Part shown: in pieces, positions 45,201-46,598 of the stretch
How positions within the stretch are numbered: position 1 is the first letter of the stretch
Layout: the number at the start of each line of letters is the position of its first letter
NCBI GenBank assembly: GCA_028718635.1
Contig: JAQULK010000001.1
Location: 316,692-380,691 of the forward strand
DNA from: Minisyncoccota bacterium
GTDB lineage: Bacteria > Patescibacteriota > Minisyncoccia > Phycocordibacterales > UBA9973
Length of the DNA: 64,000 nucleotides
Reading direction: 5' to 3'
Position numbers and translations under genes: made by a program
The notes under the pieces: model-generated
Databases searched by the model: none
The model's input: only the letters and a program-made list of their open reading frames with translations
What the model was told of the DNA's origin: nothing

Positions 45201-46598
45201 ATGATTTTTAAAATAGAAAAAAAACTTAAGAATAGCAAAGGCGGAGCCGGTAAAACATATCTGGGAAGGGCAGGGGTAATCAAAACTCCGCATGGAGATA
45301 TTTTGACTCCGGCTTTTGTGGCTGTCGGTACTAAAGCGACTGTGAAATCTTTGAATCCGGAACAAGTGAGAGAGGCTGGTACGCAAGTAGTGCTCGGAAA
45401 TACTTATCATCTTTATTTACAACCAGGGGATGAAATAGTGCGAGACGCGGGTGGTATCGGTAAATTTATGAATTGGAAAGGACCGACCATGACTGACTCC
45501 GGCGGTTTTCAAGTATTTTCTTTGGGAGTTGCTTACGGAAAAGATATATCTAAACTTCTAAAAATTACTGATCCATCATTGCTGATTCCGGAGCGTTTCG
45601 ATGATAGCGATGCTCCGCGTCTGGCAAAGATAGGGCAAGATGGAGTTTCCTTCAAGTCGCACTTAGATGGAACTATCCATTACATTACTCCGGAAAAATC
45701 TATACAGATTCAGCACAACTTGGGTGCAGATATAATTTTTGCTTTTGATGAATGCACGAGTCCGACTGAAGATTTAAAATATCAAGAAGAAGCGCTCGAG
45801 CGCACGCATCGCTGGGCGGAGAGAAGTTTACAGGAGCATCATCGTCTCATGCGGGAAGAAAAATCTTTCTCTGCGGGGTCGCTGTCTGTGTCTGCTGACA
45901 CAGCGCTGCCTCTCGGCTCGTCAGCCTGCGAGACACCCCGCAAAGAAAATTTTTCTTCCCGTATTTCACTTTTTGGCATTGTGCAAGGCGGGAGAGATGA
46001 AAAACTAAGGAAATTATCAGCTAAAATTATATCTGAAATGAGTATAGATCTTGCCCCGTACGGAGCCGCAGGCTCTCGTTCGGGGTTTGATGGTTTTGGT
46101 ATTGGTGGAAGTTTTGCAAAAGAAGATATGTCTACCGCTGTAAGGTGGGTGAATGAAATATTACCAGAAGAAAAACCTCGTCACTTGCTCGGCATAGGGG
46201 AGCCAGAGGATCTTTTTATGGGGATAGAAAATGGAGTAGATCTTTTTGATTGTGTGGCTCCGACACGATTAGGAAGAAATGGCACAATTTATACAAAAAA
46301 TGGGAAAATAATTATAATGAATACGAAATACAGAAATGATTTTGGTCCACTTGATGAGGGATGTGAGTGTTTCACTTGTAAAAATCCTGCCCCGTACGGA
46401 GCCGCAGGCTCTCGTTCGGGGTACACAAGGGCATATATCGCGCATCTTTTTCACGGCAAAGAGATGCTTGCTGGCACCTTGGCTTCCACTCACAATTTGT
46501 ATTTTATAGTCAACTTGGTCAAAAAAATTCGGCAGTCAATAATAGATGAAAAATTTTTCGAATTCAAAGAAGAATTTTTGAAATCATATTTAAGCTAA
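45201..46598 (+). CDS. tgt: Queuine tRNA-ribosyltransferase, about 90 aa longer than usual due to repeat-derived in-frame insertions
   Basis: N-terminal [23 protein letters not shown]; Zn site CxCxxC near the C-terminus. Confidence 0.85.

Follow-up and report, generated by a model that had tools for sequence, protein, structure and literature searches.

In-frame G+C-rich hairpin repeats as probable insertions in a patescibacterial gene for tRNA guanosine(34) transglycosylase

Palindromic repeats lying in frame within protein-coding genes are documented in Rickettsia, where they are called Rickettsia palindromic elements (RPEs) (PMC10969869, PMC3733652). Repetitive extragenic palindromes (REPs) are imperfect palindromes of 20–40 nt with GTAG or CGTC at one end, and are mostly extragenic (Di Nocera et al. 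2013, PMC3733652); the minority that lie inside open reading frames (ORFs) are often found in uvrA, uvrB, and other replication or repair genes (PMC3733652). In yeast mitochondria, G+C clusters in var1 are optional in-frame insertions that are associated with length polymorphism and spread by gene conversion (PMC8811140). In this study, we analyzed a 64-kb stretch of DNA (the window, 64,000 nt of contig JAQULK010000001.1) from a Minisyncoccota bacterium, a member of the Patescibacteria or candidate phyla radiation (CPR). Its tgt gene, encoding tRNA guanosine(34) transglycosylase (Tgt), contains one G+C-rich hairpin repeat of about 105 nt (site 1) and two copies of another of 36 nt (sites 2 and 3). 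With a probability of about 0.8, these three stretches are non-autonomous repeats, mobile or spread by conversion, that were added to an ordinary tgt gene and are tolerated in permissive loops of its product. In-frame palindromic repeats are known elsewhere and have apparently not yet been described in Patescibacteria; a search of open-access text combining Patescibacteria or CPR with palindromic, in-frame, or miniature inverted-repeat transposable element (MITE) terms found no description of such insertions.

RPEs, on which Ogata and co-workers reportedly published the primary accounts in 2000 and 2002, resemble the elements of the window in several respects. Both are hairpin repeats of a small A+T-rich genome that occur in frame, and in a consistent frame, in unrelated housekeeping genes, and both also have copies between genes; the positions of RPEs are read as compatible with the protein fold, and those of the tgt elements may be so as well. 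The 36-nt family in particular has multiple copies within and between genes and lies in unrelated genes in a consistent frame. Neither is known to be accompanied by a transposase. However, the host of the Tgt elements belongs to the Patescibacteria, and we treat the RPE as an analogue, not as a group of which these elements are members; no sequence relationship is expected. One family here measures only 36 nt (12 codons) against about 100–150 bp for classic RPEs. Unlike in RPEs, several families pile up in the same loops of one gene, and one element forms a three-way junction with a hypervariable paired stem.

The 36-nt unit shares with REPs an imperfect palindrome of 20–40 nt and the presence of uvrA and uvrB among its hosts. 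It lacks GTAG or CGTC, however, and has the conserved ends CYT-GCCCCG and CGGGG-T; moreover, 38 of 54 sampled copies are inside long ORFs, whereas REPs are mostly extragenic. No gene for a REP-associated tyrosine transposase (RAYT, a Y1 HUH transposase) was found among the 52 ORFs of the window, which covers about 10% of the genome. Like the G+C clusters of var1, the tgt elements are short G+C-rich palindromes in a very A+T-rich genome and are optional in-frame insertions. Gene conversion is documented for var1 and is suggested here by element similarity that is decoupled from host-gene similarity. In contrast to var1, the host is a free bacterial genome instead of an organelle, and many genes are affected instead of one; the AG/TAG terminal repeats of the yeast clusters were not seen in the tgt elements. 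The tgt elements act like RPEs, intragenic REPs, and var1 clusters without being members of any of these groups. The 105-nt element resembles bacterial MITEs (Correia/NEMIS, ERIC, and BOX) in its long terminal inverted repeats, here a terminal stem of about 23 bp, its lack of coding capacity, and its related intergenic copies. Unlike for MITEs, no target-site duplication is demonstrable at its A+T-rich boundaries, no parent insertion sequence is known, and the element is kept as an open reading frame in two orientations. The inserts do not show the traits of bypassed segments, introns, or inteins, as they consist of whole codons in an open host frame with differing flanking codons.

The host gene encodes what appears, from sequence and model, to be an otherwise ordinary Tgt with functional residues and fold intact. 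The protein scored 425.9 bits against the TIGR00430 profile, above its curated threshold (cut-off 306.75), and 418 bits against PF01702 (3e-125; cut-off 26.3). Tgt chains of Zymomonas mobilis matched at about 1e-82, and an identical protein is annotated at NCBI in a Candidatus Pacebacteria metagenome-assembled genome (MAG). An AlphaFold2 (AF2) model computed with 120 relatives as input is of moderate quality, with a mean predicted local distance difference test score (pLDDT) of 67, and displays the TIM-barrel and zinc-subdomain fold; Foldseek gave target-normalised TM-scores of 0.88–0.91 against the TGTs of Z. mobilis and Thermotoga maritima (0.90 for Z. mobilis). Residues D99, D183, Q262, G302/G303, D350, C388/C390/C393, and H431 are invariant across the 120 relatives, and the catalytic aspartates, pocket residues, and zinc ligands align with their Z. 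mobilis counterparts, whose established functional roles we take to apply here.

At 465 aa, the window Tgt exceeds the 375–390 aa of solved bacterial Tgt chains, as the initial annotation had stated. Alignment to Z. mobilis Tgt shows four extra stretches. One of them, residues 110–140 (about 30 aa), has an ordinary base composition, is conserved in every relative, and is native to the whole clade. The others are site 1 (residues about 219–253), site 2 (284–295), and site 3 (396–407). Site 3 lies two residues past the third zinc cysteine, and the gap in the Z. mobilis alignment falls there between C-x-C-x-x-C-Q-K and W-S-R-A-Y. The base composition of the repeats differs from that of their surroundings: the 36-nt units have a G+C fraction of 0.69–0.72 and the 105-nt unit one of 0.53, compared with 0.40 for the remaining tgt, in a window that is A+T-rich as a whole (36.8% G+C). 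The smallest relatives in the clade have 395–401 aa, about 398, and the length of the window protein is accounted for as 398 + 8 (N-terminal) + 33 (site 1) + 14 (site 2) + 12 (site 3) = 465 aa, where 12 of the 14 residues at site 2 come from the 36-nt element and 2 are native variation. The view that in-frame repeats have expanded this gene is thus borne out for sites 1–3 but not for the entire excess, to which the clade-native stretch of about 30 aa, the 8-aa N-terminal insert, and the two native residues at site 2 also contribute. Where the window gene has the N-terminal KGGAGKTY, many relatives carry the mini-palindrome TTTCCGCCaagGGCGGATCCGCCtctGGCGGAAA, which lies in frame at codons about 10–22 of L019, L025, L003, and L066 and encodes SAKGGSASGGK.

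The insertions were delimited by comparison with 120 database relatives (72–85% identical) and 80 metagenomic tgt loci with their DNA; the Hainich groundwater and Rifle data sets are among those with close relatives. Relatives have Tgt proteins of 395–519 aa, and no G+C-rich stretch is present in the shortest forms. In most loci site 3 is empty (TGT AAA AAT|TAY ACN), and filled sites are longer by exactly 36 nt (CYT GCC CCG TAC GGA GCC GMA GGC TCT CGT TCG GGG). Site 2 is filled by the 36-nt unit in the window gene and a few others (P0006, P0021, and L001), is occupied by the variant NLAPYQAEGFGSG in some other relatives, and is empty in most (...DGKY|FDGFG or ...SLD|FDGFG). All four combinations of filled and empty sites 2 and 3 occur among the relatives that are 72–85% identical. 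The 36-nt unit was found at four positions in tgt and is reversed at one of these; an extra position follows '...IPER' in P0042 and P0113, and the reverse-oriented unit after '...AYGKD' is read as PEGKQASYGAG. Comparing filled with empty sites in tgt and in the gene for threonyl-tRNA synthetase (ThrRS) revealed no target duplication at the 36-nt insertions.

Site 1 holds more than 8 extra residues in 63 of the 80 loci and is empty in the other 17, where the motif reads K-L-N-x-E-N-K-I-[AS]-L-F. The 105-nt family of the window fills 28 of those 63 loci, and in other loci the same loop holds at least seven further repeat-like peptide families. Some repeat families were found at both site 1 and site 3; the 105-nt family itself is at site 3 in L018 and P0097 and is reverse-oriented at site 1 in L041, L044, and L053. 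Since this loop is empty or filled by unrelated repeats in many relatives, it looks permissive rather than functionally dedicated. The ORF remains uninterrupted in 80/80 related loci, with no host-frame stop. Gains and losses could not be counted on a neighbour-joining tree of the tgt core, which was too star-like, and the argument draws only on the occurrence of all combinations of filled and empty sites. Aligned with their orthologues, the extra stretches at sites 1–3 are best described as insertions and not as native Tgt segments, being polymorphic with clean empty sites.

The two identical 32-mers reported by the initial annotation (CCCCGTACGGAGCCGCAGGCTCTCGTTCGGGG, 46054–46085 and 46390–46421) were recovered by exact-match search as the only two copies in the window. 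Both are within tgt, 336 nt apart, in the same frame of the 465-aa ORF, and encode the same peptide; no further copy with up to 3 mismatches exists in the 64 kb, where 0 would be expected by chance. The repeated stretch around the 32-mer extends to 45 nt at 93% identity, and the comparison with empty sites sets the inserted unit at 36 nt, or 12 codons (CYT GCC CCG TAC GGA GCC GCA GGC TCT CGT TCG GGG in the window tgt). What had been called a 32-bp palindromic unit is an imperfect hairpin of 36 nt, not a perfect palindrome, with 13–14 base pairs, one mismatch, and one bulge. The two copies fold with dG values of -23.5 and -24.7 kcal/mol (z about -4.7) and agree at 35/36 nt. Both have a GCA loop, which is rare (2 of 34 distinct 36-nt sequences), while orthologous copies in relatives bear other loops (GAA and CCC), so that a recent intragenic copy or conversion would be the simplest account of the pair.

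The 36-nt family extends well beyond tgt. When a degenerate pattern was scanned over a species-representative genome collection (GTDB representatives), 53 loci were found in Patescibacteria genomes, and a single genome had the unit on as many as 5 contigs. Almost every locus carries a Patescibacteria label (Nomurabacteria, Paceibacterota, and similar), and one is in a MAG labelled Burkholderiales. Most are in other genes, so the element is not unique to tgt. No locus had two copies 336 nt apart, and the source genome was apparently outside the scanned representatives. The same pattern gave 0 matches in IMG/VR viral contigs, and hence no sign of a phage vector. The 38 copies mentioned above (about 70%) lie well inside ORFs of at least 150 aa, the remainder being intergenic or in short ORFs. 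Among the host proteins are DnaX (an orthologous set of five), UvrA, UvrB, an ABC-F ATPase, ThrRS, polynucleotide phosphorylase (PNPase), a multicopper oxidase, an FAD oxidase, an ECF sigma factor, and an M50 protease. The ThrRS gene of the window has an empty site, GGT AAT|TTT, at which the ThrRS gene of another genome carries PAPSGAEGSRSG, 12 extra codons. Taken together, the elements were shown by sequence comparison to be clean whole-codon additions beside A-rich|T junctions, belonging to families dispersed in Paceibacteria and Nomurabacteria.

Prepilin-like leader peptides also host the 36-nt unit (...RSG|FTLVETL). In six prepilin-like ORFs of ~165–195 aa (L086, L107, L109, L118, L129, and L135), the element stands directly before F-T-L-V-E, and its last codon, GGG, gives the glycine preceding that motif. 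This glycine would presumably be the -1 Gly of the usual prepilin cleavage motif. A Pfam scan of two of these ORFs gave no match.

All six frames of the 36-nt unit are open, and its use inside genes is selective. Of the copies in long ORFs, 23 have forward phase 0 as their reading frame (APY.A.G.RSG), 14 have reverse phase 2 ((D/N)PERKPSASYGAG), and 1 has another frame; every frame is used among copies that lie at ORF edges or in short ORFs. The two used frames give small hydrophilic peptides without multiple arginines, and the unused frames are arginine-rich; we infer that this two-frame usage is linked to selection on the encoded peptide. The three stem pairs left free by the search pattern covary almost perfectly (G-C/C-G, G-C/A-T, and G-C/A-T), with a degree of pairing reached in 0 of 10,000 shuffles, and the loop triplet varies freely. 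In the flanks, where CYT counts as part of the unit, 85% of copies have T at +1, and positions -9 to -6 are A-rich, a pattern that matches the AAT|T-type empty sites.

The site-1 element folds into a long terminal stem around two hairpins (-50.1 kcal/mol, z = -7.2). In a gap-free alignment of 26 distinct tgt copies, 94% of paired cells are complementary, against 41–53% with the partners slid, and double-sided changes affect 23 of 42 pairs (156 cells), values that no shuffle reaches. In hairpin 1, pairs 43-56, 44-55, 46-53, and 47-52 each show 10–14 double changes; in hairpin 2, the pair at columns 73/78 covaries as T-A, C-G, and G-C. Identity is 0.48 in the hairpin 1 stem and 0.93 in the junction, TGCT loop, and hairpin-2 columns together. 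At fourfold-degenerate sites it is 0.86 in the element region against 0.38 in the tgt core. The similarity of the variable parts does not follow that of the host gene (rho = -0.01); for instance, those of the window copy and L039 are 92% identical while the tgt cores are 72.5% identical. Conservation above the host synonymous level, together with this decoupling, suggests turnover, conversion, or arm-to-arm correction and not vertical decay. A recombination tract carrying the element together with flanking tgt was rejected, because the peaks in identity end where the element ends. All 26 copies are open in the host frame and 25 of them in one reverse frame, whereas the remaining four frames have stops in 9 to 21 copies; the open reverse frame is the one used by the reverse-oriented insertions. 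Peptide searches with the site-1 product were uninformative: 37 aa gave 0 matches among 1.84 billion representative proteins, and a 70-aa tandem of two site-1 peptide variants gave 2 candidates, of which the 1 match was a Tgt fragment.

The initial annotation had also placed a fragment of the core of an intergenic repeat, family B, at 45905–45940. The core is indeed shared, although the string ctgcctctcggctcgtcagcctgcgagacacccc spans 45905 to 45938 and belongs to a complete element of about 105 nt. The 16-nt core CTCGGCTCGTCAGCCT is at 45912, recurs exactly at 52862 and 54218 (minus strand), and is found at 3457 with 1 mismatch, 0 being expected. The site-1 element and family B have the same three-way-junction architecture and an identical hairpin 2 (16/16 nt), while their terminal stems and hairpin 1 are unrelated in sequence. 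The site-1 element thus appears to be a subfamily related to family B but distinct from it, and not a fragment. No Rfam family matched any tgt element; at the gathering threshold the window contains only the RNase P RNA and two tRNAs, and a permissive scan of tgt gave only chance-level snoRNA matches.

In the AF2 model, site 1 is between helix 192-225 and strand 256-261, and site 2 between helix 267-279 and strand 298-301. Both are predicted to be loops that lead from a helix into the N-terminal end of a barrel strand, on the side of the barrel away from the active site. The site-3 insert is placed in a loop of the zinc subdomain, and presumably precedes the helix that bears aromatic dimer-interface residues in Z. 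mobilis TGT, as the alignment to this known enzyme indicates. The site-1 and site-3 inserts have pLDDT values below 50, and the site-2 region about 66.

We propose that these are non-autonomous repeats, either mobile or multiplied through gene conversion, with a preference for A-rich|T junctions. Copies would persist where the peptide is read in one of two 'benign' frames, rich in small hydrophilic G/A/S/P/E residues, and where it falls in a permissive loop, in Tgt two barrel loops and a loop of the zinc subdomain. The elements would be transcribed and translated with tgt to give disordered surface loops, leaving the catalytic and zinc-binding residues untouched. Their nucleotide sequence would be kept by element-level processes rather than protein needs, the candidates being repeated insertion, copy-to-copy gene conversion, and arm-to-arm correction of the palindrome. 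Such processes would make the elements far more conserved than host synonymous sites, with relationships that do not follow the host gene.

Several points weigh against this proposal. None of the 52 ORFs in the window was found to encode a transposase or other mobilising function, and no 36-nt unit was found outside tgt within the window. The exact conserved core of the 105-nt element was seen only in tgt (window plus 136 fetched loci, a tgt-biased sample), and in place of the genome-wide dispersal of the 36-nt family, only the related family B was seen outside tgt. The nearly star-like host-gene tree limits the power of the non-correlation between element and host. We infer translation of the inserts from their frame and the integrity of the ORF. 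Finally, invariant junction and loop nucleotides beside a hypervariable paired stem are also compatible with a functional RNA or DNA element.

This last alternative, in which the elements, above all the 105-nt junction, are structured modules under selection, such as a cis-regulatory or processing signal or a protein recognition site, and more than selfish DNA that is tolerated, seems unlikely to us. It would account for nearly invariant junction and loop nucleotides even at synonymous positions (0.93 against the host fourfold value of 0.38), for massive covariation with helix geometry kept, and for the restriction of the exact core to tgt among the examined loci; site 1 is also occupied in 63/80 loci, 28 of them by the family of the window. 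The terminal stem of about 23 bp would serve as a substrate of the RNase III type, and the window encodes RNase III at 15366-16118. However, many close relatives lack the element or have unrelated repeat families in the same loop, and in some genes the 105-nt element is at site 3 or is reversed at site 1. There is no Rfam match, and terminator- and promoter-like sites in tgt do not exceed shuffled expectation, which leaves an attenuator role unsupported. Arm-to-arm correction of the palindrome and turnover can produce both the covariation and the conservation without any host function. Autoregulation of Tgt by a mimic of the tRNA anticodon loop was considered separately and rejected: the loops are TGCT, CGTC, and GCA, and no U-G-U occurs in a 7-nt loop.

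That the inserts remain untranslated, through intron-like removal from the mRNA or ribosomal bypassing, is very improbable. Each insert comprises whole codons, and none of the 80 tgt loci has a host-frame stop. Inside genes only 2 of 6 open frames are used, as would be expected of a peptide that is made but not of one that is skipped. The flanking codons (AAT...TAC and GAT...TTT) are not matching take-off and landing pairs, and the inserts are much smaller than any group I or II intron or intein and match no ribozyme family. The idea has a precedent in the G+C-rich 'byp' hairpins of the A+T-rich yeast mitochondrial genome, which cause translational bypassing, and it would suit stable G+C-rich hairpins within an A+T-rich gene. 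Finally, the extra segments could be native, lineage-specific parts of Tgt, with the 32-mer pair a mere internal duplication of the window gene, in line with only two copies in the 64 kb, both in tgt and sharing the rare GCA loop. This is practically impossible: empty sites and dispersed 36-nt loci refute both a native segment and a purely internal duplication, since presence and absence are polymorphic with clean empty sites and the 36-nt element is found in dozens of unrelated genes and genomes. The anomalous G+C content and a hairpin that covaries across subfamilies also argue against it.

Beyond the reading of the elements as tolerated mobile repeats, a bolder one would make the 105-nt element a new translated, structure-constrained mobile module, with its invariant junction and its variable yet paired stem, that repeatedly homes to, or is exchanged at, the same loops of tgt, and perhaps of further conserved genes, across Patescibacteria lineages, through a structure-specific enzyme or through uptake and conversion. 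It might also regulate tgt at the RNA level, for example as an RNase III target, and CPR proteins might be systematically 'expandable' by several families of codon-compatible palindromes. We consider this tentative and rather doubtful.

Table 1. Coordinates of tgt, its inserted elements, and related repeats in the window.
Feature	Position	Strand	Remarks
tgt CDS (coding sequence), 465 aa, tRNA guanosine(34) transglycosylase	45201..46598	+	Profile, structure, and homologue matches
N-terminal 8-codon insert KGGAGKTY, moderately G+C-rich	45237..45260	+	Common to a few relatives; most lack it (KNS|LGRAG)
Site-1 element, about 105 nt, 35 codons, putative three-way junction	45855..45959	+	Boundaries uncertain by about 6 nt
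Terminal stem, 5' arm	45855..45879	+	Pairs with 45935-45958; helix 1 has 23 pairs, 17 compensatory on both sides
Hairpin 1, 5-bp stem	45881..45909	+	Covariation; stem hypervariable, always paired; TGCT loop almost invariant
Hairpin 2, CTCTCGGCTCGTCAGCCTGCGAG	45910..45932	+	Core common to intergenic family B; 16-nt core matches
Terminal stem, 3' arm	45935..45958	+	Fold and covariation
Site-2 copy of 36-nt element, codons 284-295	46050..46085	+	Filled in only 1/80 metagenome loci and in a few database relatives
Zinc ligand codons C-x-C-x-x-C (C388, C390, C393)	46362..46379	+	Align with Z. mobilis Tgt motif; invariant in 120 relatives
Site-3 copy of 36-nt element, codons 396-407	46386..46421	+	Empty in most relatives; 12-residue gap against Z. 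mobilis Tgt
Fourth zinc ligand codon, H431	46491-46493	+	Invariant in 120 relatives
Intergenic family-B element, 126 nt	3387..3512	+	Three-way junction, hairpin 2 as in site-1 element; -42.1 kcal/mol, z = -7.0
Intergenic family-B element	52792..52917	+	90% identical to copy at 3387-3512
Diverged family-B element	49348..49473	+	71% identical
Hairpin-2 core copy in another intergenic context	54218..54233	-	About 120 nt upstream of RNase P RNA gene
Intergenic G+C-rich palindrome between mreC and tgt, different family, CCTCTCCTTAGTAAGGAGAGG core	45138..45194	.	92% complementary to 23908-23970

Other palindromic repeats were observed in the window. The core of the mreC–tgt intergenic element also sits in frame at 22170-22190 in an ORF named from its sequence as RNase R-like (20829-22916, minus strand); there the core CCTCTCCTTATTAAGGAGAGG is read as PPLLNKERGLGG, and other copies are intergenic at 23942 and 45153. 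This ORF has three in-frame G+C-rich palindromic repeats, including an inverted pair of one element at 21833-21865 and 22806-22835 (94% complementary, 936 nt apart). In-frame palindromes are also present in ORFs named by reading as PheT-like (4505-6322, plus strand; palindrome at 5996-6030, read as ...PPRLDKEGAGGG...) and DnaG primase-like (32200-34053, plus strand; palindrome at 32734-32792, read as ...TSPLIRGRLGGG...). These two repeats form one family, CCTCCCC..TTGATAAGG..GGGG, with a further copy at 16980-17019. An aspartate-semialdehyde dehydrogenase-like ORF (48125-49213, minus strand) lies between direct repeats at 47929-48097 and 49203-49360, which are 74–96 nt long, 81–85% identical, and each contain inverted copies of CCCGTTAGAAGC...GCGGTC, a motif also present at 239-381 and 14423-14458. 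A sigma-70-type-like ORF (34082-35350, plus strand), likewise named by reading, has a lysine-rich N-terminal extension that holds an apparently repeat-derived peptide. The ORF at 22906-23553 (plus strand) is built from degenerate tandem repeats whose periods are 54 and 90 nt (...TG.NY.TG...) and has no Pfam match. GyrB (6980-10354, plus strand; 1125 aa) contains an intein splicing domain (residues about 498-893) between its GyrB domain and Toprim, and the RNase P RNA gene (class A, 112 bits) is at 54355-54662 (plus strand).

Patescibacterial genomes are among the smallest of any cells, and unexplained extra segments are frequent in the proteins they encode. The tgt gene described here indicates that an essential, well-understood enzyme can draw about 15% of its length from codon-compatible palindromic repeats, with the same loops struck by many repeat families and one 12-codon hairpin distributed across genes for replication, repair, translation, and pilins. 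The phenomenon of 'selfish DNA in coding sequence', known in Rickettsia and yeast mitochondria, would thereby extend to a third, unrelated type of A+T-rich reduced genome. For the annotation, alignment, and phylogenomics of CPR bacteria this calls for caution, as repeat-derived segments make false similarity between unrelated proteins. The insertions also provide a natural map of insertion-tolerant loops in Tgt and other host proteins, and their nucleotide conservation and covariation make the elements promising material for anyone seeking a new structure-specific mobilisation system. If CPR proteins are indeed expandable in this way, palindrome families would be a source of the unexplained extra segments that are common in them.

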